39,670 bases of DNA from Desulfobacterales bacterium. Lineage in GTDB: Bacteria > Desulfobacterota > Desulfobacteria > Desulfobacterales > UBA5852. The stretch's first letter is position 1, and each line of letters begins with the position of its first letter. Below are positions 964-38,325 of this stretch, one piece after another. The notes under the pieces were generated by a model, which was not told the origin of the DNA, ran no database searches, and worked only from the letters and a program-made list of their open reading frames with translations. The stretch is taken from assembly GCA_030065585.1 (NCBI GenBank), contig JASJED010000061.1:1-39670 (forward strand). Reading direction: 5' to 3'. Position numbers and translations under genes: made by a program.

Positions 964-2328
964 ATGAAGAATAGCCATTCAATTGCCAAAAAGCCTAAGG
1001 CCATTCATCGGCTGATTATCTGTGCCATCGTTCTGCTGACCGGGGTCGGCGCCATGCTGGCCCTGGCGTCCATGAAAAAGCCGCCGGCCGAAGCGCGCCT
1101 GGACGAGCGCCCCCTGCACGTGGAAGTGTGGCCAGCGCGCTCTCGGGATGTGCCGGTTATCATCAGCGGGTATGGCGAAGCCCGGCCCTTGGACATGGTC
1201 ACCATTTCACCTGAAGTGTCAGGCCGGATCGTCATGAGTCATCCGCAGCTTGAGGCCGGCGAAATCATTCCCCGGGGGGAGGTGCTGTTCCGAATCGACG
1301 ATCGCGACTATCGCGCGGACCACAGCGAAGCGAGCGCTGCGGTGCAGCAATGGCGCAATACGATTTTACGACTGCGCAAGCAGGCCGCCATCGATCAGGA
1401 GCGCCTCAAAACTTTGCGCCGCAGTCAGGGGCTGGCTGAAGACGAGTTCGACCGACTCAAGAATCTATTCGAACAAGATCGTGTCGGCACGCGCTCCGGT
1501 GTCGACGCCGCCGAACGGGCGGCCAATACAGCACGGGATCAGGCCGATCAGATGGATCAGGCGGTGACACTCTACCCGATTCAAATCCGCGAGGCCCAGA
1601 ACAGCCTCAAAGCGGCCCAAGCCCGGCTGGAAATCGCCGCCATACGCCTGGAGCGATGTGTGGTTTCCGCGCCGTTTAGCGGACGCGTGCGCAGCGTGTC
1701 AATCGAGCAAGGCCAGTATGTCACCGCGGGTGTGGCCGCCGTTACCCTGGCCGATGACGCCATCCTCGAAATCCATATCCCCATCGATAGCCGCGACGCA
1801 CGTCAATGGTTGCGTTTCGAGGCCGGTTCACTGCCGCCCAGCGGTGCATGGTTCGGTGATCTGGAGCCTGTCACCAGCCGGATCACATGGACCGAAGCCC
1901 TGGACGGCCAGCACTGGGAAGGAACCCTGCATCGGGTGGTGGCTTTCAACAAGGAGACCCGCACGCTAACCGTCGCGGTGCGTATCAGTGCGGCAGAGGC
2001 TGTTTCCGGCGCACCGGCGCAGATGCCCCTGGTGGAGGGGATGTTTTGTCTGGTTGAAATTCCGGGCAAGTCCATGCGTCAGGTGATCGCGCTGCCGCGC
2101 TGGGCCGTCAGTTTCGAGAATACCGTCTATGTGGCCCGCGATCAGCGGTTGAAAACCGTACCGGTCCGGGTGGCCCGCATCCAAGGAGATCGGGCTTATA
2201 TAGCTGAAGGCTTGCAAGACGGCGAGCAAATTATTGTCACACGGCTGGTCGATCCACTCGAAAATACCCTCTTGAAAATCAGCGAGGCGGCGGATGCGAA
2301 GGTGTCAAGCGATGAAAAGCCGTCCTGA
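964..2328 (+). CDS. Efflux RND transporter periplasmic adaptor subunit (HlyD/MFP family)
   Basis: 454 aa with an N-terminal TM anchor (LIICAIVLLTGVGAMLALA). It has a lipoyl/coiled-coil/beta-barrel layout (VSGRIV..., LFRIDDRDY, long QA-rich coiled coil). It sits between marR and the RND pump. Confidence 0.9.
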   Translation: MKNSHSIAKKPKAIHRLIICAIVLLTGVGAMLALASMKKPPAEARLDERPLHVEVWPARSRDVPVIISGYGEARPLDMVTISPEVSGRIVMSHPQLEAGEIIPRGEVLFRIDDRDYRADHSEASAAVQQWRNTILRLRKQAAIDQERLKTLRRSQGLAEDEFDRLKNLFEQDRVGTRSGVDAAERAANTARDQADQMDQAVTLYPIQIREAQNSLKAAQARLEIAAIRLERCVVSAPFSGRVRSVSIEQGQYVTAGVAAVTLADDAILEIHIPIDSRDARQWLRFEAGSLPPSGAWFGDLEPVTSRITWTEALDGQHWEGTLHRVVAFNKETRTLTVAVRISAAEAVSGAPAQMPLVEGMFCLVEIPGKSMRQVIALPRWAVSFENTVYVARDQRLKTVPVRVARIQGDRAYIAEGLQDGEQIIVTRLVDPLENTLLKISEAADAKVSSDEKPS

Positions 2329-2386
2329 GATCTTGGCGCCCGAGATTTCAACGCGCTAGGTTGTCAAAGCCCCGATTAGGTTCCCT

Positions 2387-5300
2387 ATGAGATCGCTCTT
2401 AAAGGCCTTTGCGCGCAACACTGTCTTTGCCAACATCGTGCTGGTGATGATTTTTTTGACCGGTGGCATGGCGGCCGTGTCCATGATCCGGGAAACCTTT
2501 CCCGAGTTTTCGCTGGATATGATCACGATTGCCGTGGACTACCCCGGTGCGGATCCCGAAGAGGTGGAAGAGGGGATCAGCCGCAAGATCGAAGAAGCCA
2601 TCGAAGCCGAGGAGGGCATCAAGCAGTATACCACCAAATCGCGTGAAAATCGGGCCAGCGCCACCATCGAAGTTCGGGAAAATTACGATGTGGCCCAGGT
2701 GCTGGCCGACGTCCGCAGCAAGGTGGACGCGATTTCGACGTTTCCTCAAGACGCCGAGGAGCCGGTGATCAGCGAGTTGATGCTCAAGGATCCGGTCATG
2801 CTGCTCTATCTATCGGGCGACATGAACGAGCGGCGCCTCAAGGAATGGGCCGAAGAAGTCAAGGACGACCTGCAGCAGTTGCCCGAAATCTCCCAGGTGA
2901 CCCTCTACGGTATCCGAGAATACGAGATCGCGATCGAGGTCAGCGAACAACGCTTGCGGGAGTATGGGCTGAGCTTTGATCAGGTGACCGCGGCGGTTCG
3001 CCAGAGCAATCTCAACCTGGCCGGCGGCACGCTTCGCACCGAGGGGGAAGAAATCCGGGTGCGGACCATGGGCCGCAAATACACCGGCAAGGAGCTGGCC
3101 TCGATCGTCGTACTGGCCACGCCCGAAGGCGATATCATCACGCTCGACCGACTGGCACGCATCGTGGACGGTTTTACCGAGGACCCCATCCAGGCCACCA
3201 TCAATGGCGCGCCCGCGGTCACCATGATTGTCTACAAGACCAAGGAGGAAGACGCCCTGGTGATCTCCCGCGCCGTGAACCGCTACGTGGCGCAGAAAGC
3301 ACAGCAGATCCCGCCGGGAGCCAATCTCAAAGTATTATACGACAACACCGATATGCTGCGGGCCCGCATCAATCTGCTGCTCAAAAACGGCATCATCGGG
3401 TTGCTGATCGTGTTTATTTTGCTGTGGATGTTCTTGAACGTCCGGCTCAGTTTCTGGAGCGGCATGGGCATTCCCATTTCCATCGCCGGTGCCATGGCCA
3501 TCCTGTGGGCCATCGGCGGCACCATCAATATGGTATCACTCTTCGGTTTTATCATGGTGCTGGGGATCGTGGTGGATGACGCCATTATCGTTGGTGAGGC
3601 GATCTATCATCACCGCAAGTCGGGAAAACCGCCGTTGCAGGCGGCGGTGGATGGCGTCAGCGAAGTGGGCCTTCCGGTGTTGGCCGCCGTGGTGACCTCG
3701 GTAGTGGCCTTTTTACCCCTGGCCTATATCAGTGGGATCATGGGTAAATTCATTGCCATCCTGCCGATGGTCGTAATCGCCTGCCTGGTGGTCTCGCTGT
3801 TGGAATGTCTTTTTCTGCTGCCGGCCCACCTCAGCCATCTGCCCGATCCCAATCGCCCGCCAAGCAATTCGGACCGGCTCTTGAGGCGCCTGGAGGTGGT
3901 ACAACGGACCACCAGCCGGGGCATGGAATGGTTTGTGGAACGAATCTACACGCCGTTTCTGCGGGTGGCCATCAACTGGCGCTACGTTTCCCTGTGCTCC
4001 GCCGTCAGCATCCTTATGGTGGCGTTGGGGCTAGTCATGGGGGGCATCCTTAAATTCGAAGTGTTTCCCGAGTTGGACGGGTTCGTCATGACCGCCACGG
4101 TGGAATATCCCAACGGCACGCCGCCGGATGTCACGCGACGCGCCCTGCGCCAGGTGGAAGAGGCCCTGATCGATCTTGAAAACCAATATCCCACCAAAAC
4201 CGGTTTGCCGCTGGTGAAACACCGTTTGGCCTTGGTGGGACAGACCCTGGAAGACTGGCCCAAGAGCGGTCCTCACCTCGGGTCGGTGCAGGCAATTCTG
4301 CTGGACTCGGAGGAACGTGGTACCCATTCCCGTGATCTGATGGTGGCCTGGGAAAAAGCCGTCGGCGTCATTCCCGGTGTCAAGGCCCTGACCTTCACCG
4401 GCATGGAAGCCGGTCCACCGGGTGCCCCCATCGAAATCTGGATTCAGGGCCGGAATATGCCTGAAATCCTGGCGGCTTCCGAAGATCTCATGGCGCGTCT
4501 GCGAAAATTCGACGGGGTTTTCCAGATCCGCTCGGATTTTTCGCCGGGCAAGAATGAAATGCGTCTACGACTCAAGCCGCAAGCCCGTTCCCTGGGGCTG
4601 ACGGTCGACGACCTGGCCCGCCAGGTCTATGCGGGCTTTTACGGTGACGAAGCCCTGCGGCTGCAGCGGGGGCGGGATGACATCCGTGTCAAGGTGCGCT
4701 ATGCGGCCGACGAGCGGCGCAGAATCTCGGATATTGAGAATATTCGCATCCGCACCCACGAGGGGCGGGAAGTGCCCCTGCTTTCGGTGGCAGACGTCCA
4801 ATTCACGCCGGGCTATTCGACCATCACGCGAACGGATGGCATGCGGCGTGTGGCGGTCAGCGCCGACGTGGATACCAACAAGGCCAACGCCAATGAAATC
4901 TTCAACGAATTGGCCGCCAATTTTTTTCCCCAGCTGGAGCGTCAATACCCCGGTCTGTTGATTGCCCAGAAGGGCGAAAAGAAAAAAATGAAGGAGTCCT
5001 TCACCAGCCTCAAGATCGGATTTCCCTTGGCGGTGCTGGGAATCTTCATCATCGTCGCCACCATTTTCCGTTCCTACGCCCAGCCCTTTATCATTCTTTT
5101 CACCGTACCATTCGGCATCATCGGCGCGGTGGTCGGACACTTCCTCCTCAATTATGATCTCTCGCTGATGAGTATTTTCGGGATGGTCGCCCTCACGGGT
5201 GTCGTGGTCAACGATGCCATCGTGCTGATCGAACGGATCAATGAAAACCTGGCGCAGCGGCAGCGCTTTTTCGAGGCCATCATCAATGGCGGGCGACGAC

Positions 5301-5629
5301 GCTTCCGGGCCATCATTCTGACCTCTTTCAGCACAGTTGGGGGGTTGGCCCCCATGATTCTGGAAACCGATCTGCAGGCTAAGTTTCTGATCCCCATGGC
5401 CCTGGCGCTGGCCGCCGGTGTGGCTTTTGCCACCGTGCTGACTTTAGTGCTGATCCCCAGCCTGCTGGTGATCTTGAACGACCTGCGCCGGTTGGTGTAT
5501 AAACTGCGCCATCACCACTGGCCCACCCGGGAGCAGGTGGAGCCGGCCACCAAACGTAGGCCCCAAGCGGAAACGGGCGGCGAGGCGGCCGACATGGCAT
5601 CGGCGGCGGTGTTGACACGGTTGAATTGA
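2387..5629 (+). CDS. Efflux RND transporter permease (AcrB/AcrD/AcrF family)
   Basis: 1080 aa. It shows the duplicated 6-TM plus large periplasmic loop architecture and conserved RND motifs (GIVVDDAIIVGE, TGVVVNDAIVLIE). Confidence 0.95.
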   Translation: MRSLLKAFARNTVFANIVLVMIFLTGGMAAVSMIRETFPEFSLDMITIAVDYPGADPEEVEEGISRKIEEAIEAEEGIKQYTTKSRENRASATIEVRENYDVAQVLADVRSKVDAISTFPQDAEEPVISELMLKDPVMLLYLSGDMNERRLKEWAEEVKDDLQQLPEISQVTLYGIREYEIAIEVSEQRLREYGLSFDQVTAAVRQSNLNLAGGTLRTEGEEIRVRTMGRKYTGKELASIVVLATPEGDIITLDRLARIVDGFTEDPIQATINGAPAVTMIVYKTKEEDALVISRAVNRYVAQKAQQIPPGANLKVLYDNTDMLRARINLLLKNGIIGLLIVFILLWMFLNVRLSFWSGMGIPISIAGAMAILWAIGGTINMVSLFGFIMVLGIVVDDAIIVGEAIYHHRKSGKPPLQAAVDGVSEVGLPVLAAVVTSVVAFLPLAYISGIMGKFIAILPMVVIACLVVSLLECLFLLPAHLSHLPDPNRPPSNSDRLLRRLEVVQRTTSRGMEWFVERIYTPFLRVAINWRYVSLCSAVSILMVALGLVMGGILKFEVFPELDGFVMTATVEYPNGTPPDVTRRALRQVEEALIDLENQYPTKTGLPLVKHRLALVGQTLEDWPKSGPHLGSVQAILLDSEERGTHSRDLMVAWEKAVGVIPGVKALTFTGMEAGPPGAPIEIWIQGRNMPEILAASEDLMARLRKFDGVFQIRSDFSPGKNEMRLRLKPQARSLGLTVDDLARQVYAGFYGDEALRLQRGRDDIRVKVRYAADERRRISDIENIRIRTHEGREVPLLSVADVQFTPGYSTITRTDGMRRVAVSADVDTNKANANEIFNELAANFFPQLERQYPGLLIAQKGEKKKMKESFTSLKIGFPLAVLGIFIIVATIFRSYAQPFIILFTVPFGIIGAVVGHFLLNYDLSLMSIFGMVALTGVVVNDAIVLIERINENLAQRQRFFEAIINGGRRRFRAIILTSFSTVGGLAPMILETDLQAKFLIPMALALAAGVAFATVLTLVLIPSLLVILNDLRRLVYKLRHHHWPTREQVEPATKRRPQAETGGEAADMASAAVLTRLN

Positions 5630-5649
5630 GCAAAGGCCAGGGAGTTGCA

Positions 5650-7077
5650 ATGCAAACAATGCACACGCTGAAAAACATCGGGTGCGCTGCCACTTGCGCA
5701 CTGCTGTGGATGGGACTGACGCTTGGCAACGTTCGTGCCGAAAATGGCGTCATGGCGGACAACGCCGCACGGATCGACTGGGATGCCATCGAGATCTTGG
5801 ACATCGAAACGGCCCAGCGCATCGGTCTTTTACAAAACCCCAATTTGCGGGCGGCTTCGGAAAGGGTCAACCAGGCCCGTGAGCGGGTGCGCCAGGCCCA
5901 GGCCGCTTATTGGCCGACCGTCGATACGGAAGGTTCATGGCGGCGTGAGGAAATTTCCAACAACCAACGAAAGCAGAGGGTCATTACGGGTGGTGAGACG
6001 GTCCGCGCGGGGAGCGACGATGATTCCACGAATATCTATCGTGTCGAAATGATCACCACCTGGACCGTTTTCGACGGCTTCCGCCGTCACTACGACAATG
6101 CCCGGGCGCGCTTCGGCGAAGAAGAAAACCTGGCATCGCTCAAGGAAGCCCGGCGTTTGCTGCTATCGTCGATCGCCGACAACTACTATGTCGCCCAGTT
6201 GGCCATGGAAAACATCCGCATCGCCGATGCCGACGAAGAATTCAACACCCGCCAGCTCGAAGAAGCCCGGGCCCGCATGCGGGTGGGCACCGGATCATTG
6301 AGCGACGTGCTCAATTTCGAGGTCCAGGTCAACGCGGCCCGCTCGGCGCGCAACGGTTTCGAGCGGGACTACCGTCTGGCCATGATCGGGCTGGCCGCGC
6401 TGATGGGTATTCCCGATGCGGGTTTGCCGGATTCTTTGAAGTTATCGCCGCTCAAGCCGGAAACCGACAAGGATCTGGCCATGCCCCCGGATACGGAAAA
6501 TATCGATTACGCCCTGGAGCACCGCACCGATATTCAACGTGATCAGTCCATCGTCAACCAGGCAGACGCTGGGGTGGGCATCGCCCGGGCTCGGTATTGG
6601 CCGGCGCTCGAATTCCGGGCCTCGGTGGACGGCGAACAGAAGAATTCCGTGGATTATGAAAAAGATGATTTCGGCAGCACGGTGGGCTTGTTTTTAAGCT
6701 ACCCGCTGTTTACCGGTGGTGAGCGCCGCTCCCGGCTGGCCGAAGCCAAATACATTAAAAACGAAGCCGAGGACAATTTGGACGCCACCCGCATTGGCGT
6801 GGCCTCCGACGTGCGCGAGGCCATTGCCAACGTGGTGACCGCCCAGCGCGAACTGCTCCTGCAACAGAACAACGCCGAATTGGTCAAGCGCAATCGAGAC
6901 CTGGTGGACAAGGAGTACAACGCTGGGCAGGCTTCCCTGGTGCGGCTCAACGAGGCCCAGCGTGATCTGAATCAGGCCACCAGCCAGCTGGCCCTGGCGC
7001 GGGTGGGACTGCGCCAGACCTGGAAGAATTTGAATGTGGCCACGGGGCGGATATTGCAGCCCTTCGAAGCCCCCTAA
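5650..7077 (+). CDS. TolC-family outer membrane efflux protein
   Basis: The track ORF starts at a TTG at 5626 that overlaps the RND stop codon. The in-frame ATG at 5650 has AGGGAG six nt upstream, so I use it. The protein has a signal peptide and two OEP repeats (RARYWPAL, YPLFTGGERRSR). Confidence 0.9.
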   Translation: MQTMHTLKNIGCAATCALLWMGLTLGNVRAENGVMADNAARIDWDAIEILDIETAQRIGLLQNPNLRAASERVNQARERVRQAQAAYWPTVDTEGSWRREEISNNQRKQRVITGGETVRAGSDDDSTNIYRVEMITTWTVFDGFRRHYDNARARFGEEENLASLKEARRLLLSSIADNYYVAQLAMENIRIADADEEFNTRQLEEARARMRVGTGSLSDVLNFEVQVNAARSARNGFERDYRLAMIGLAALMGIPDAGLPDSLKLSPLKPETDKDLAMPPDTENIDYALEHRTDIQRDQSIVNQADAGVGIARARYWPALEFRASVDGEQKNSVDYEKDDFGSTVGLFLSYPLFTGGERRSRLAEAKYIKNEAEDNLDATRIGVASDVREAIANVVTAQRELLLQQNNAELVKRNRDLVDKEYNAGQASLVRLNEAQRDLNQATSQLALARVGLRQTWKNLNVATGRILQPFEAP

Positions 7078-17591: not shown

Positions 17592-18458
17592 ATGGACACA
17601 TCCGGTTTCGAGATCCGTGAATGGCCGGTACTGCGCAAGCCCGCAATGGTCGTCGGTTTGGGCGGTTGGGGCAATGCGCTGAATGTTGCCAAAGGAACGG
17701 CCGCCTACCTGGTTCGCCGGATGGGAGCCAGCCTTTTCGGTACCCTGCGGATGGACAAATTCTTTCGCTTCGACGAAAGTCGCCCCACCGTAAACATCCA
17801 GGATGGGCTGATGGCGTCCGTTCAATTTTCGCGTGGAGGGCTGTTCGCCGTCAAACAGCCCGGTCATGAGCGGGATCTCGTACTCATCGTAACCGAAGAA
17901 CCGCATCTGAGCTGGGAAGCCTTTGCCGAGCAACTCATTAATGTGGCCCGCATCACTAATGCTTCCGAATTCATTTCCCTGGGCAGTTTGTACGACGGGG
18001 TGCTGCACACCGATGCCCTGGTCTCAGGGTTTGCCGGCAGCGCCGCGCATCTGGAGGAACTGGCGGCGTTGGGCATTCGCCCGGTGACCTACCAGGGGCC
18101 CAGCGCCATTCACTCGATCCTCCATCTGAAGGCTTGTGAAGGCGGGATCAAGGCCAGCAGTCTCTGGACCCATTGCCCCTATTATCTGGAAGGTACTTCC
18201 CACCCCGGCCTGATTGCCGCAACCACCAACGTTGTTTGCCGTATTCTGGGTTTGACGCTGGATACCCTGGATCTTGCGCAGGAATGGGAACGGTTGAAAA
18301 AAGACATCCAGGTGGCGATCGAGGAAAATCCCAAACTCCAGAAACTGATTGGCGAGTTGCGCCGGGCCAAGGTTCGCGGCGCCTGGGCCAATCGATCGGT
18401 TCCCCATCGCAGCGGGGACAAGGTTATTCGCCTCAAAGATTTTCAAGATCCCAGCTGA
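17592..18458 (+). CDS. PAC2 (proteasome assembly chaperone 2-like) family protein
   Basis: 288 aa. The N-terminal stretch PAMVVGLGGWGNALNVAKGTAAYL is typical of bacterial PAC2-family proteins. GAGG lies 8 nt upstream of the ATG. Confidence 0.7.
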   Translation: MDTSGFEIREWPVLRKPAMVVGLGGWGNALNVAKGTAAYLVRRMGASLFGTLRMDKFFRFDESRPTVNIQDGLMASVQFSRGGLFAVKQPGHERDLVLIVTEEPHLSWEAFAEQLINVARITNASEFISLGSLYDGVLHTDALVSGFAGSAAHLEELAALGIRPVTYQGPSAIHSILHLKACEGGIKASSLWTHCPYYLEGTSHPGLIAATTNVVCRILGLTLDTLDLAQEWERLKKDIQVAIEENPKLQKLIGELRRAKVRGAWANRSVPHRSGDKVIRLKDFQDPS

Positions 18459-30771: not shown

Positions 30772-31251
30772 ATGTTTTCGCTACGCGACGTACTGGATAT
30801 GGCCGCCAAGATCGAACGCAACGGCGAAAAGGTCTACCGTCAGGCCCTGGCCCGGACCGAAGACCCCGAGCTGGCGGAAATGCTCGTTTGGATGGCTGAT
30901 CAGGAGGCCCAGCATGCCGACTATTTTGAGGATCAGCGTCTCAGCTTGGTCGGGGAGGAAGACAACATCCTTTTGGAGGAGCTGGGCCGTTTGATGCTGG
31001 AGAGCATTGTCGGCGATCGCGGCTTTTCTCTGGAAGACGTGGATTTCAGCCAAATCGCCGATGTCAATCAACTGCTCCGGGTGATGATCGAATTCGAACT
31101 GGACACCCTGGAATTCTATCGTCTTTTCCATACTCTCATCGGCAACGAAAGCGAACGTCGCCAACTGGGCCGCATCATTGCGGATGAAGAGGAACACATT
31201 CGCAAACTCATGACCTGCCGCGATAAGAACCTCGCCTGCCACAAGTCCTGA
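30772..31251 (+). CDS. Ferritin-like / rubrerythrin-type diiron domain protein
   Basis: 159 aa. It shows the E...ExxH...E...ExxH ligand pattern (IERNGE, DQEAQH, EFELDTLEFY, DEEEH). Confidence 0.8.
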   Translation: MFSLRDVLDMAAKIERNGEKVYRQALARTEDPELAEMLVWMADQEAQHADYFEDQRLSLVGEEDNILLEELGRLMLESIVGDRGFSLEDVDFSQIADVNQLLRVMIEFELDTLEFYRLFHTLIGNESERRQLGRIIADEEEHIRKLMTCRDKNLACHKS

Positions 31252-35147: not shown

Positions 35148-35267
35148 GGGGTGTATCGCGGGGGATATGCTAAAAAAGCTTTCTATCTGCCGTCAACTTT
35201 AGTAAGTACATCGCCATCGTTTCGACCGCACACCGCCACCTGCGGTGTGTGTCTCCCCGGAGAACCT

Positions 35268-36740
35268 ATGCAACGGGAAAACTATATCGAAACCTTGCGA
35301 TCGGAACTGCTGGATCTGGTCGAGGAGCATCTGACGCCGGTGGCCCTGCGCTACGGCTACAGCGAGGTGCCCCTGGAGTCCAACATCAAGTGGCGGCCGC
35401 TGGTGCTCGTGCTGGGCAACTATTCCTCGGGCAAGTCCACCCTGATCAATGATTTTCTGGGTGCCAAGATCCAGTCCACTGGACAAGCCCCCACGGACGA
35501 CTCTTTTACGGTGATCACCTATGGTGACAGCGAGAGCGAAGCGGATGATACCGTTCGGGTGGTCGAAGAGCGGGACGGCAAGTTTCTGCTCAACGACCCG
35601 GAATACCCCTTTGAGACCCTCAAGCGCTACGGACAGCGTTTCATCGCGCATTTTCGTTTGAAAAAGATCAATTCGCCCTTCCTCGAAAACCTGGCGATTA
35701 TCGATACCCCCGGCATGCTGGACAGCATTACGGAGCGCGACCGCGGCTACGACTACCAGGAAATCATTGGCGATCTGGCCCAGATGGCCGACCTGGTGCT
35801 GGTGCTTTTCGACCCCCACAAGGCCGGAACGGTGCGCGAAACCCACACCAGTCTGCGCGACACCCTGCCGGCCAAGACCTTCGAAGACCGTGTGCTTTTC
35901 GTGCTTAACCGCATCGACGAGTGCGCCTCCCTGATCGATCTCCTGCAGGTCTATGGCACCCTGTGCTGGAACCTGTCCCAGATGACGGGCCGCAAGGACA
36001 TACCGCCGATTCGTTTGACCTATTCGCCGCACGTCATGCAAAAGGGCGCCGGGGAATTGAACACCGACCAGCGCTATCTGCACTACCTGGACAACCAGCG
36101 CATGGAGGTCAAGGAAGCCGTATTGCAGGCCCCGCGTTACCGCCTCGACAATCTGGCGACCTTCGTCGAAACCCACGGGGAGCGGTTGTCCCATCTGCTG
36201 GAGGCCCTGGTGAGCTACAGCAAGCGCAAGCGTCGTTTCTTCTGGCGCCACCTGCTGATCAGCCTGATCCTCAGCATCCTTTTGGGGGGCGGGGCCGTGG
36301 CCGGGGTGATCACCGCCGGTCTGATCGGGCCGGACCCCTATCTGATGGCGGCGGTCGGCGGGGGAAGTGCGGTCCTGCTTTTCGTGCTCTGGCTGGCCAC
36401 CGGCATGCGCTGGCTGCGCGGCCGCTTCCATCGTGACCAGATGCGCCATCTGGATCGGCTAACGCCCCTGCGCAACCAAACCCGACGCGACAGTTGGCAA
36501 TCCATTCGGGACCTGGTTTACCTGACCTTGAAACGCACCACCGGAAAGATCGCGCGTAAGGAGGTCAAGTCGGAATACGAGGCCGTTTACCGGATCTACA
36601 CCGAAGGTTCCAAGGATATCCGTGAAGCGCTGAACGAACTGGCGACCCTTGAAGCCGGCGAGGCCCCGGCCTGGACGCGCGATGAAGCTTCGGAATCACC
36701 GCGTGATTTTCCTTATCAGGAGCTTGCCCGCCAAGATTAG
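35268..36740 (+). CDS. EHD-like dynamin-superfamily NTPase with C-terminal transmembrane hairpin
   Basis: The G1 motif is LVLGNYSSGKSTLIN. Further motifs are PTDDSFTVIT, IIDTPGMLDS..RDRGYDY, LVLFDPHK and VLNRID....LLQVYGTLCWNLSQM. The order and spacing mirror the eukaryotic EHD G domain. Two hydrophobic helices are present (LLISLILSILLGGGAVAGVITAGLI and YLMAAVGGGSAVLLFVLWLATGM). The start is taken at ATG 35268; the track lists GTG at 35151. Confidence 0.85.
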   Translation: MQRENYIETLRSELLDLVEEHLTPVALRYGYSEVPLESNIKWRPLVLVLGNYSSGKSTLINDFLGAKIQSTGQAPTDDSFTVITYGDSESEADDTVRVVEERDGKFLLNDPEYPFETLKRYGQRFIAHFRLKKINSPFLENLAIIDTPGMLDSITERDRGYDYQEIIGDLAQMADLVLVLFDPHKAGTVRETHTSLRDTLPAKTFEDRVLFVLNRIDECASLIDLLQVYGTLCWNLSQMTGRKDIPPIRLTYSPHVMQKGAGELNTDQRYLHYLDNQRMEVKEAVLQAPRYRLDNLATFVETHGERLSHLLEALVSYSKRKRRFFWRHLLISLILSILLGGGAVAGVITAGLIGPDPYLMAAVGGGSAVLLFVLWLATGMRWLRGRFHRDQMRHLDRLTPLRNQTRRDSWQSIRDLVYLTLKRTTGKIARKEVKSEYEAVYRIYTEGSKDIREALNELATLEAGEAPAWTRDEASESPRDFPYQELARQD

Positions 36741-37549: not shown

Positions 37550-37818
37550 GGGGCGGAATCTCCTTTCGGTGCCGGCCCGAGGGTGGGCTCGGCCAGGATA
37601 ATTTCTACGCGGGCCAAAACAATGCTTGGCCTGGATGCCGACGTGCTTTACCTTGACATAGCAACATATGCCAATCCAGTGTCGGCAGGCAAGCCCGACA
37701 CGGGCCGATCGTGCGGACGCCTCTGCGGTGACACCCGCTTCTCCGCCGACCATGCGTGACAACCTCTACCGCGGTCGTCACCGACGGCCCGATTAAATTT
37801 GTTGAAGGGAGACGTGTG

Positions 37819-38325
37819 ATGAACCTCGAAGACGCCATCGCTCAGGCCATCGCCTATGAAACCCGCATCCGGGACCTCTATCGCGAGGCCGCTGATCAAA
37901 CCACCGATGTCAAAGGCCAGAAAGTCTTCCAGACCCTGGCGGACGATGAACAGCGTCACCTCGATTATCTGGAGCACAAACGCCGCCAGTGGCGTGAGGA
38001 AGGGACTCTGACGGTGGAACTTCTGGCCTCGCTGGTGGCGGCTCCCGAAATACCGCCGTCGGCGGTTGAAGGCCTCGCCACCCAGATGGACCGCCCCGAC
38101 CGGGGCGACGAAAAACGAATGCTCAGCAAGGCGCTGCAGGTCGAGATGGAAACCAGCGAATTCTACCGGCGCATGGTCGCGGAGATGGACGGTGCGGCCC
38201 GTGACATGTTCGCGCGCTTCCTGGAGATCGAAGACGGCCATATCGTCGCGGTCCAGGCCGAACTCGACTATATCAGCCAGACCGGGTTCTGGTTCGACTT
38301 TCAGGAGTTCGACATGGAGTACTAA
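37819..38325 (+). CDS. Ferritin-like / rubrerythrin-type diiron domain protein (paralog of 30772-31251)
   Basis: The ATG at 37819 has GGGAGA six nt upstream. The ligand pattern is YETRIRD, DDEQRH, QVEMETSEFY and EIEDGH. Confidence 0.8.
   Translation: MNLEDAIAQAIAYETRIRDLYREAADQTTDVKGQKVFQTLADDEQRHLDYLEHKRRQWREEGTLTVELLASLVAAPEIPPSAVEGLATQMDRPDRGDEKRMLSKALQVEMETSEFYRRMVAEMDGAARDMFARFLEIEDGHIVAVQAELDYISQTGFWFDFQEFDMEY

Follow-up and report, generated by a model that had tools for sequence, protein, structure and literature searches.

A bacterial EHD-like protein with a transmembrane hairpin, encoded in a Desulfobacterales genome

Results

An EHD-like gene on a Desulfobacterales contig

We analyzed a stretch of 39,670 nucleotides from a Desulfobacterales bacterium (NCBI GenBank assembly GCA_030065585.1, contig JASJED010000061.1, positions 1 to 39,670 of the forward strand), hereafter the window, and investigated one of its genes, which encodes a predicted nucleoside triphosphatase (NTPase) resembling the eukaryotic EHD proteins. 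An earlier examination of the DNA letters, hereafter the sequence-only reading, had proposed that the G domain of this protein follows that of the EHD ATPases motif by motif and is fused to a transmembrane (TM) hairpin. The parts of the protein, its gene and the gene directly upstream are listed in Table 1. Throughout, conservation is counted over 81 aligned relatives, comprising 30 sequences of the subtype to which the window protein belongs and 51 of a sister subtype, the Planctomycetes-Verrucomicrobia-Chlamydiae (PVC) type.

Table 1. Coordinates of the EHD-like gene, the parts of its product and the adjacent Lon-like gene. Positions are those of the window; residues are those of the EHD-like protein.
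Feature	Residues	Position	Strand	Evidence and remarks
Lon-like AAA+ protease gene (LonB/LonC-like), 803 aa		32736..35147	+	Pfam AAA_32, LonB LID, LonC helical, Lon_C; 120 nt upstream of the EHD-like gene
Shine-Dalgarno GGAG		35259..35262	+	5-nt spacer AACCT to the ATG; read from the sequence
EHD-like NTPase gene, 490 aa		35268..36740	+	ATG start; TAG stop at 36738-36740
N-terminal helix	2-28	35271..35351	+	Homologue of the N-terminal helices contributing to the EHD helical domain; phmmer, hhalign, AlphaFold2 helix 2-28
Dynamin-type G domain	44-250	35397..36017	+	Pfam Dynamin_N, E = 1e-17; EHD2, E = 7e-30; top Foldseek matches EHD4/EHD2
G1 / P-loop GNYSSGKS	50-57	35415..35438	+	G50, S53, G55, K56 and S57 invariant, 81/81
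G2 / switch I PTDD	75-78	35490..35501	+	Aligned to EHD2 P92-T93-T94-D95
G3 DTPG	146-149	35703..35714	+	D146, P148 and G149 invariant
RGYDY	159-163	35742..35756	+	Corresponds to RGYDF, the EHD block that follows switch II
G4 NRID	214-217	35907..35918	+	Followed by Glu218 where EHDs have Met223
Helix with W234	222-240	35931..35987	+	W234 aligned to EHD2 W238
Outgoing half of helical domain	269-326	36072..36245	+	AlphaFold2 helices 269-286 and 288-350; hhalign to EHD; unbroken into TM helix 1
TM helix 1, glycine-rich	327-350	36246..36317	+	Hydropathy; hydrophobicity kept in 81/81
Short periplasmic turn LIGPDP	351-356	36318..36335	+	Hydropathy, AlphaFold2 model
TM helix 2	357-381	36336..36410	+	Hydropathy, conservation, AlphaFold2 model
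Returning half of helical domain	382-460	36411..36647	+	Conserved; predicted local distance difference test (pLDDT) ~84-96; hhalign to EHD residues ~323-396
Variable acidic disordered C-terminal tail	461-490	36648..36737	+	No conservation, length varies; pLDDT ~49-62

The start codon is well defined. Aligning the window with five related loci showed that both the GGAG and the ATG are invariant, and an alignment of homologues showed that they share the same initiator methionine. For both reasons the ATG at 35268 is the right start, and a longer GTG-initiated open reading frame (ORF) from 35151 is unsupported as a gene. The long antisense ORFs in the window are the usual by-product of its G+C content of ~59%.

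Similarity searches rank EHD proteins first

Searching all PDB sequences with phmmer recovered EHD2 at E = 7.2e-30 (query residues 2-247 aligned to EHD2 13-251) and EHD4 at E = 3.4e-27, and a family profile search gave the same picture (EHD, E = 9e-31). The best phmmer matches outside the EHDs were a Campylobacter dynamin-like protein (DLP) at 3e-3, IniA at 0.2 and BDLP at 0.26. Pfam recognized Dynamin_N (1e-17) and MMR_HSR1 alone; EH, EHD_N and DUF5600 gave no match in the window protein, nor did any EH or EF-hand model at E up to 1. Similarly, ten longer relatives scanned for extra domains contained Dynamin_N only and no EH domain. Against NCBIfam, the protein scored 16.3 bits for DynA and 16.7 bits for LeoA, where the respective cut-offs are 1600 and 325.

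The predicted fold led to the same proteins. A first AlphaFold2 model, built with 36 close homologues, was mediocre (pLDDT 75), and a second, built with 81 sequences of both subtypes, reached a pLDDT of 85.7 and a predicted template-modelling score (pTM) of 0.79. When the fold was compared with the PDB using Foldseek, the five leading matches were all EHD structures, namely EHD4 5mtv (E = 6.6e-17), 5mvf, 7sox, EHD2 4cid (E = 1.7e-13) and 2qpt. Next came IniA (5e-10), BDLP (1.3e-9), the Campylobacter DLP pair and MFN1 (5e-8); the first, weaker model gave the same ranking. Overall, the resemblance to the EHDs is specific and far beyond chance, and sequence, profile and structure searches agree that the protein lies closer to the EHDs than to BDLP, LeoA, IniA or other GTPases, as the sequence-only reading had proposed.

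The G domain carries EHD-type motifs with a distinctive switch I and G4

The G domain contains the motifs GNYSSGKSTLI (residues 50-60), PTDDSF (75-80), IIDTPGMLDS (144-153), RGYDY (159-163), LFDPHK (180-185), LNRID (213-217) and VYGTLCWNLSQM (228-239). Every motif that had been quoted for this domain from the letters is present at its place; the spacer between MLDS and RGYDY, which had been put at four residues, is in fact five (ITERD). The EHD blocks that had been cited for comparison were essentially right when checked against mouse EHD2 and an alignment of 12 EHDs, in which they read GQYSTGKT, PTTD(C/R)F, DTPGILSG-x6-RGYDF, LFDAHK, LNKAD and VYGALMW(A/S)LGK. Among the 81 relatives, G1, G3, the Asp of G4, R159 and W234 are invariant, and within RGYDY the conservation is 81/81 for R159, 73/81 for G160 and 77/81 for Y161.

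Switch I is conserved in a form of its own. D77 and D78 are invariant in all 81 sequences, whereas T76 is kept in 73, with Ile or Val in its place in 8 of the 51 sister-subtype sequences. In the phmmer alignment, the catalytic switch-I Thr94 of EHD2 is aligned to Asp77; finding an invariant Asp in place of the G2 Thr is unusual within the dynamin superfamily.

The G4 region bears on the choice of nucleotide. Residues N219-K220-A221-D222-M223 of EHD2 (native numbering, 9rbu_A) align to N214-R215-I216-D217-E218 of the window protein. D217 is invariant in all 81 relatives. G4 reads NRxD in all 30 window-subtype sequences, and the sister subtype has the canonical NKxD in 49 of 51 sequences and Lys215 itself in 50. 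The following position, 218, holds Glu throughout the window subtype (30/30) and Gln, Arg, Leu or Asn, with a single Thr and a single Lys, in the sister subtype; a Met after G4 was found in none of the 81 relatives. The ATP specificity of the EHDs has been ascribed to two features, a Met immediately following G4, which blocks the amino group of guanine, and an engagement of the G4 Asp by the tail of the EH domain (Daumke & Praefcke 2016, PMC5084822). Since the G4 Asp is intact and the guanine-excluding Met is missing, the substrate would more likely be GTP than ATP, with the Lys-to-Arg change in G4 leaving room for doubt. The sequence-only reading, which had noted the NRID motif and considered the specificity open, was therefore fair on this point.

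Alternatively, the protein could be an ATPase like the eukaryotic EHDs, with ATP use being ancestral to the whole EHD-like clade. It is nearest to the EHDs over the whole G domain, and the Arg that replaces the canonical Lys throughout its subfamily (30/30) implies that base recognition has been altered to some degree. However, both of the ATP features named in the review are missing, the guanine-reading Asp217 has been retained without exception, and the sister subtype keeps NKxD almost throughout. We thus regard ATP use as unlikely on balance, although it is the strongest of the alternatives considered here.

The hairpin lies at the tip of an EHD-type helical domain

Kyte-Doolittle hydropathy in 19-residue windows peaked at 2.4 and 2.1, at residues ~327-353 and 357-381. 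A GPDP turn separates the two segments, and their flanks are basic (KRKRRFFWRH and RWLRGRFHR). At the aligned position, 81/81 relatives have two hydrophobic 17-mers (Kyte-Doolittle value 1.41 or higher), while the sequence of the hairpin itself is poorly conserved despite the kept hydrophobicity. Hydropathy, basic flanks and conservation thus bear out the proposed TM hairpin. By the positive-inside rule both termini would be cytoplasmic, and the G and helical domains would accordingly lie at the inner face of the cytoplasmic membrane.

In the second AlphaFold2 model, a helix spans residues 2-28, and two long helices, 288-350 and 357-393, run uninterrupted from the cytoplasmic bundle through the membrane. 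They are followed by helices 404-424 and 430-460 at pLDDT ~84-96, and residues ~461-490 alone are disordered. The returning half of the helical domain (382-460) bears the conserved motifs LTPLxNQTRRDSW and GSKEIREALNEL.

Profile comparisons extended the similarity to EHDs beyond the G domain. Using hhalign, we compared the combined profile of 81 sequences (both bacterial subtypes, with the window protein as its first row) with 12 EHDs and obtained E = 7.8e-48 over 379 columns, with profile positions 13-455 aligned to EHD 12-396. The sister-subtype profile alone gave E = 6e-46 over 375 columns, which begin in the N-terminal helix and reach EHD residue ~396, whereas the window-subtype profile matched in the G domain only (226 columns, E = 3.7e-30); the sister subtype therefore scores nearer to the EHDs than the window subtype does (6e-46 versus 4e-30). 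Relative to the EHDs, both the sister-subtype and the combined alignments show the TM region as inserted between “MPSVFG” and “KDNKKK”, a stretch that corresponds to F322/K324/K327-329 in EHD2 numbering. These alignments place the hairpin at the polybasic lipid-binding tip of the EHDs (with FGK on one side and DNKKK on the other), where EHDs touch the membrane. Because the TM region falls as an insertion at this tip, the hairpin is not an appendage that follows the G domain, and the C-terminal helices complete the helical domain as its return half.

The architecture first proposed for the protein, a G domain joined to a hairpin and a charged tail of about 130 residues, therefore stands in its first two elements and needs to be redrawn in the third. 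An EHD-type helical domain is also present, with the hairpin at its tip, and the part after TM helix 2 is ~109 residues long, of which 382-460 form conserved helices and the last ~30 are variable and disordered.

Two bacterial subtypes and a separate group of eukaryotic relatives

A word-indexed search returned more than 1900 homologues, and the best 120 of these are all ~490 residues long at 61-99% identity. The nearest named relatives, at 86-88% identity, come from metagenome-assembled genomes of Desulfobacterales/Desulfosarcina. Members of the family are labelled “dynamin family protein” by NCBI and often “EH domain-containing protein 1” by JGI. Scanning one genome per species, we found relatives in 531 genomes, of which the best 80 are essentially all of the Desulfobacterales type and include the cultured Desulfosarcina alkanivorans and D. 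widdelii. An exhaustive search of representatives gave 1703 clusters at 50% identity when E values up to 1e-3 were accepted, and 182 at E up to 1e-30.

Motif inspection divided the family in two. The window subtype, with the signature GNYSSGKS...NRxDEC...CWNLSQ, occurs in Desulfobacterota. The sister subtype, with GNHSSGKS...NKVD...CWNLSKVI (sequences P0290-P0399), is ~450 residues long, has the same hairpin and occurs widely among Planctomycetota and Opitutales, where it lies on contigs as long as 611 kb. The two share the same architecture and differ by the canonical NKxD and by a His in place of the P-loop Tyr in the sister subtype. They are homologous over their full length, hairpin and C-terminal helices included (hhalign E = 3e-78, 423 columns), at ~30% identity.

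We also computed a neighbor-joining tree from 229 G-domain columns with 100 bootstraps and no outgroup; the tree is unrooted and was drawn with midpoint rooting. The EHDs fall into a single clade on a long branch (100/100), outside both bacterial groups, the window subtype forms a clade of its own (93), and the NKxD subtype groups with longer relatives that include dinoflagellate sequences (77). Being unrooted and without an outgroup, the tree cannot settle the direction of transfer between bacteria and eukaryotes.

The longer relatives (P0228, P0255, P0256, P0268 and P0284) have 550-850 residues and retain the TM hairpin without an EH domain. Some are eukaryotic by source: the P0228 cluster with P0284 derives from transcriptomes of the dinoflagellate Apocalathium (MMETSP/EukProt), and P0256 from EukProt, while P0255 and P0268 were grouped with them by common motifs only. 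In the tree, relatives of the P0228 type nest within the bacterial NKxD group and not with the canonical EHDs. This placement suggests that the longer eukaryotic relatives may be a second, separate eukaryotic lineage of the EHD-like family.

Genomic context and leader of the gene

The neighbours of the gene in the window are ordinary Gram-negative chromosomal genes, encoding an aminotransferase, RsmB, a heptosyltransferase, an ABC1 kinase, rubrerythrin-like and NUDIX proteins and an RND operon. The G+C content of the gene is host-like and its synteny is that of an ordinary chromosomal region. When all ORFs of 80 related loci were clustered, no neighbour family occurred in more than 12 loci. 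The linkage to the Lon-like protease gene is kept in the closest clade alone (13/80 loci), and the Lon-like, convergent NUDIX and rubrerythrin-like genes together are syntenic in 13-14 of the 80 loci, again in the closest clade only. No terminator was detected on the + strand between the Lon-like and the EHD-like genes. In other clades the recurring neighbours are futalosine-pathway Mqn genes, an MFS transporter, a solute-binding protein and a small uncharacterized membrane protein. We therefore rejected a conserved operon partner, as the synteny over the 80 loci is only clade-specific, and the neighbourhood offers no hint of function. A second dynamin-like gene was found neither in the window nor in the 80 related loci; genes of the BDLP type are usually paired, whereas the EHD-like gene is solitary.

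PADLOC reported a weak local match to LeoA (2e-8 over 80 residues) and one to LeoBC (2e-3), and no defence match of note among the neighbours. We rejected an association with defence and membership in the Eleos system, since the PADLOC match reflects the generic G domain only and LeoA and LeoBC are not encoded together. With no neighbour family conserved and no defence signal, the gene appears to be stand-alone and to act without a dedicated partner gene.

Several local observations accompany this picture. Rubrerythrin/ferritin-like genes at 30772-31251 (+) and 37756-38325 (+) flank the pair of Lon-like and EHD-like genes, and the NUDIX (NudE-like) hydrolase gene converges on the EHD-like gene; the rubrerythrin-like and NUDIX neighbours look like an oxidative-stress set. 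In 12 of the 80 loci (L014, L020, L026, L031, L036 and L041 among them), a multi-pass membrane protein of ~181 residues is encoded directly upstream on the same strand, after a gap of ~30-90 nt. It has no Pfam match and could be a clade-specific partner. Farther away, the window encodes a PAC2 (proteasome assembly chaperone 2-like) family protein of 288 residues at 17592-18458 (+; E = 2e-31) and a three-gene RND efflux operon at 964-7077 (+), consisting of an HlyD-like adaptor, a 1080-residue AcrB-family pump and an outer-membrane factor.

Upstream of the gene, an intergenic block, TAAAAAAGCTTTCTATCTGCCGTCAACTTTAGTAAGTACAT (35171-35211), is near-identical in the window and its two closest loci, L001 and L002, but not in remoter loci. 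Judged from this conservation it may be a promoter or operator of the EHD-like gene. A scan for the sigma-70 consensus did not call the block, and a promoter and terminator scan returned nothing on the + strand around the EHD-like gene. A 10-bp GC-rich hairpin, CGCACACCGC-CACCT-GCGGTGTGTG (35227-35251), ends 8 nt 5' of the Shine-Dalgarno sequence and lacks a T tract. It is not conserved among the related loci in their alignment, and no unusual fold was seen for the full 128-nt leader (35148-35275; z = -1.45); in view of the unremarkable fold and the absence of conservation, we claim no regulatory role for it.

Discussion

The relationship described here is less new than it had seemed from the letters. 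In their passages on this clade, Schäffer, Iyer, Burroughs & Aravind (2020, Front Genet 11:34, PMC7016017) report that the closest bacterial homologues of EHD and sarcalumenin carry two TM helices, suggest for them a role in membrane dynamics and infer a transfer from bacteria to eukaryotes; in those passages the clade receives a two-sentence description and a stylized tree, with no biochemistry. The window protein fits that clade on every point that we tested (an EHD-like G domain, a pair of TM helices, a bacterial source). It clearly belongs to the bacterial EHD/sarcalumenin-like clade, where our comparison was with EHD sequences and the sarcalumenin side is taken from the paper, and it is a typical member of a group already known in silico. 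What may go beyond the passages of that paper devoted to the clade is the homology to EHDs over the full length, the position of the hairpin at the tip that binds lipid, the missing ATP determinant, the invariant G2 Asp, the division into NRxD and NKxD subtypes, their distribution over Desulfobacterota and PVC bacteria and the lack of a conserved partner gene.

Compared with the eukaryotic EHD1-4/RME-1 proteins (2QPT, 4CID, 5MTV, 7SOX), the window protein shares the N-terminal helix, the G domain and the helical domain, as well as the EHD-specific blocks GxYSxGK in the P-loop, RGYD(F/Y), LFDxHK and VYGxLxW and the Trp aligned to W238. In contrast, it has no EH domain and linker, a TM hairpin takes the place of the polybasic tip (FGKxNKKK), the ATP-selecting Met is missing, G4 reads NRxD, an Asp occupies the position of Thr94, and the protein is bacterial. 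The EH domain of EHDs, which is C-terminal (N-terminal in plants), binds NPF motifs. Lacking an EH domain, an ATP-selecting Met and a peripheral tip, the window protein is not an EHD in the strict sense.

We conclude that the gene probably represents a bacterial sister group of the EHD/sarcalumenin proteins, encoding a dynamin-superfamily NTPase that is integral in the cytoplasmic membrane and remodels the bilayer. The hairpin would anchor the protein so that its G domain and helical bundle face the cytoplasm. Dimers of the EHD type would form through the W234 helix as in EHD2, which dimerizes constitutively through the corresponding helix with W238 in the interface. Nucleotide binding would then promote higher membrane-bound oligomers through contacts between G domains, and hydrolysis would change the angle between the G and helical domains. 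Through the rigid connection between helix and TM segment, this movement could be passed on to the bilayer, bending, tubulating or tethering it or stabilizing its curvature; the glycine-rich hairpin could also serve as a wedge. Since the EHD-specific interfaces are conserved, an EHD-like mode of scaffolding or tubulation would be favoured over tethering or fusion. Membrane repair, invagination and vesicle dynamics are conceivable as the cellular process that the protein serves.

Several points weigh against this interpretation. The presence of Asp77 in place of Thr94, together with the losses of T76, means that catalysis may differ from that of EHDs and dynamins or be slow. The topology is drawn from hydropathy and charge only, and the homology of the helical domain appears with the broader profile and the predicted fold, while the narrow subfamily profile stops at the G domain. 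The template-modelling scores of the Foldseek matches are modest (0.47-0.59) and the root-mean-square deviations large, because domain orientations differ between the model and the EHDs. Dimerization, oligomerization and membrane remodelling are extrapolated from homology alone. Finally, literature searches for experimental work on bacterial EHD-like proteins returned Schäffer et al. 2020 only, an in silico study; a further match, to “Ehd” in archaea, was discarded, as it concerns a hydrogenase.

A different kind of machine is also conceivable, one that tethers or fuses membranes as mitofusin, atlastin and BDLP pairs do, with G-domain dimers across apposed membranes pulling the bilayers together. 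Among the structural matches, the EHDs are followed by mitofusin, IniA and BDLP. Proteins of the IniA/BDLP type have in common with the window protein a layout of G domain, helical bundle, membrane-inserted hairpin and return helices (PMC5084822), and mitofusin, atlastin and BDLP also carry TM segments at the tip (PMC5084822). The occurrence of the sister subtype in Planctomycetota, which have elaborate membrane invaginations, would also suit such a role. However, IniA and BDLP form only a second tier of structural matches, with negligible sequence similarity (E = 0.2-0.3) and a different bundle architecture, and both sequence and fold are far nearer to the EHDs, which scaffold and tubulate rather than fuse. 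In Desulfobacterales, intracytoplasmic membranes are not known to be a general feature. The invariant Trp aligned to W238 argues for EHD2-like dimers in cis, and no paired second DLP gene is present, unlike in most bacterial DLP operons. We therefore judge a tethering or fusion machine rather unlikely.

Less probable still is a membrane-tethered regulatory or switch GTPase that controls, for example, a membrane protease or a stress response and performs no mechanical remodelling. In the clade of the window the Lon-like protease gene lies close upstream on the same strand with no detected terminator in between, and the invariant Asp that aligns with the switch-I Thr could make hydrolysis slow and switch-like. 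However, the linkage to the Lon-like gene is confined to 13 of the 80 loci, the conserved intergenic block suggests that the EHD-like gene has its own promoter, and the mechanical apparatus of the EHDs (N-terminal helix, helical domain and W234 helix) is conserved. Taken together, these observations make a pure switch function improbable.

The remaining two explanations concern the origin and the affiliation of the gene. The unusually high similarity to a family otherwise described as eukaryotic, and the eukaryotic source of some relatives (dinoflagellate transcriptomes), could mean that bacteria recently acquired an EHD gene from eukaryotes by horizontal transfer and that this gene subsequently lost the EH domain and gained the hairpin. 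Such a transfer is very improbable: the bacterial family has many members and deep divisions (531 species genomes, 1703 clusters, two subfamilies ~30% identical), the gene has ordinary synteny and host-like G+C content, the EHDs form one clade outside both bacterial groups in the unrooted tree, and the relevant passages of PMC7016017 infer the opposite direction. Hardly credible at all is an ordinary bacterial DLP of the BDLP, DynA, LeoA or IniA kind, possibly linked to defence and only superficially EHD-like, which the NCBI name, the weak PADLOC match to LeoA, the NCBIfam matches to DynA and LeoA and the Lon-like protease just upstream might suggest, given NCBIfam scores of ~16 bits against cut-offs of 325-1600, PDB E values of 3e-3 to 0.26 against 1e-30 for EHD, a Foldseek lead of ~7 orders of magnitude for the EHDs, housekeeping neighbours without a second DLP gene or a defence island, and a Lon-like neighbour found in the closest clade only.

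EHDs are commonly described as an invention of eukaryotes. In a 2026 review covering 25 years of work on them they are placed “across eukaryotes”, and searching that text for terms on bacterial homologues, prokaryotes and archaea turned up no mention of these. A large bacterial sister family exists in Desulfobacterota and PVC phyla. It is possible, though we put it forward only tentatively, that the hairpin-anchored protein is the ancestral form of the EHD/sarcalumenin family, in which case the polybasic tip would have arisen by loss of the hairpin, ATP specificity would have come later with the EH domain, and an invariant switch-I Asp would stand in for the otherwise universal Mg-coordinating Thr. 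If so, the ancestral form would be a simple, partner-independent prokaryotic model of an EHD scaffold that couples hydrolysis to bilayer deformation, and its occurrence in Planctomycetota might relate to the membrane invaginations of that phylum. The bacterial family could thus supply a tractable system for membrane deformation by the EHD fold, a natural experiment on how ATP specificity evolves from GTP specificity within one fold, and a data point for the bacterial contribution to the eukaryotic endomembrane toolkit.

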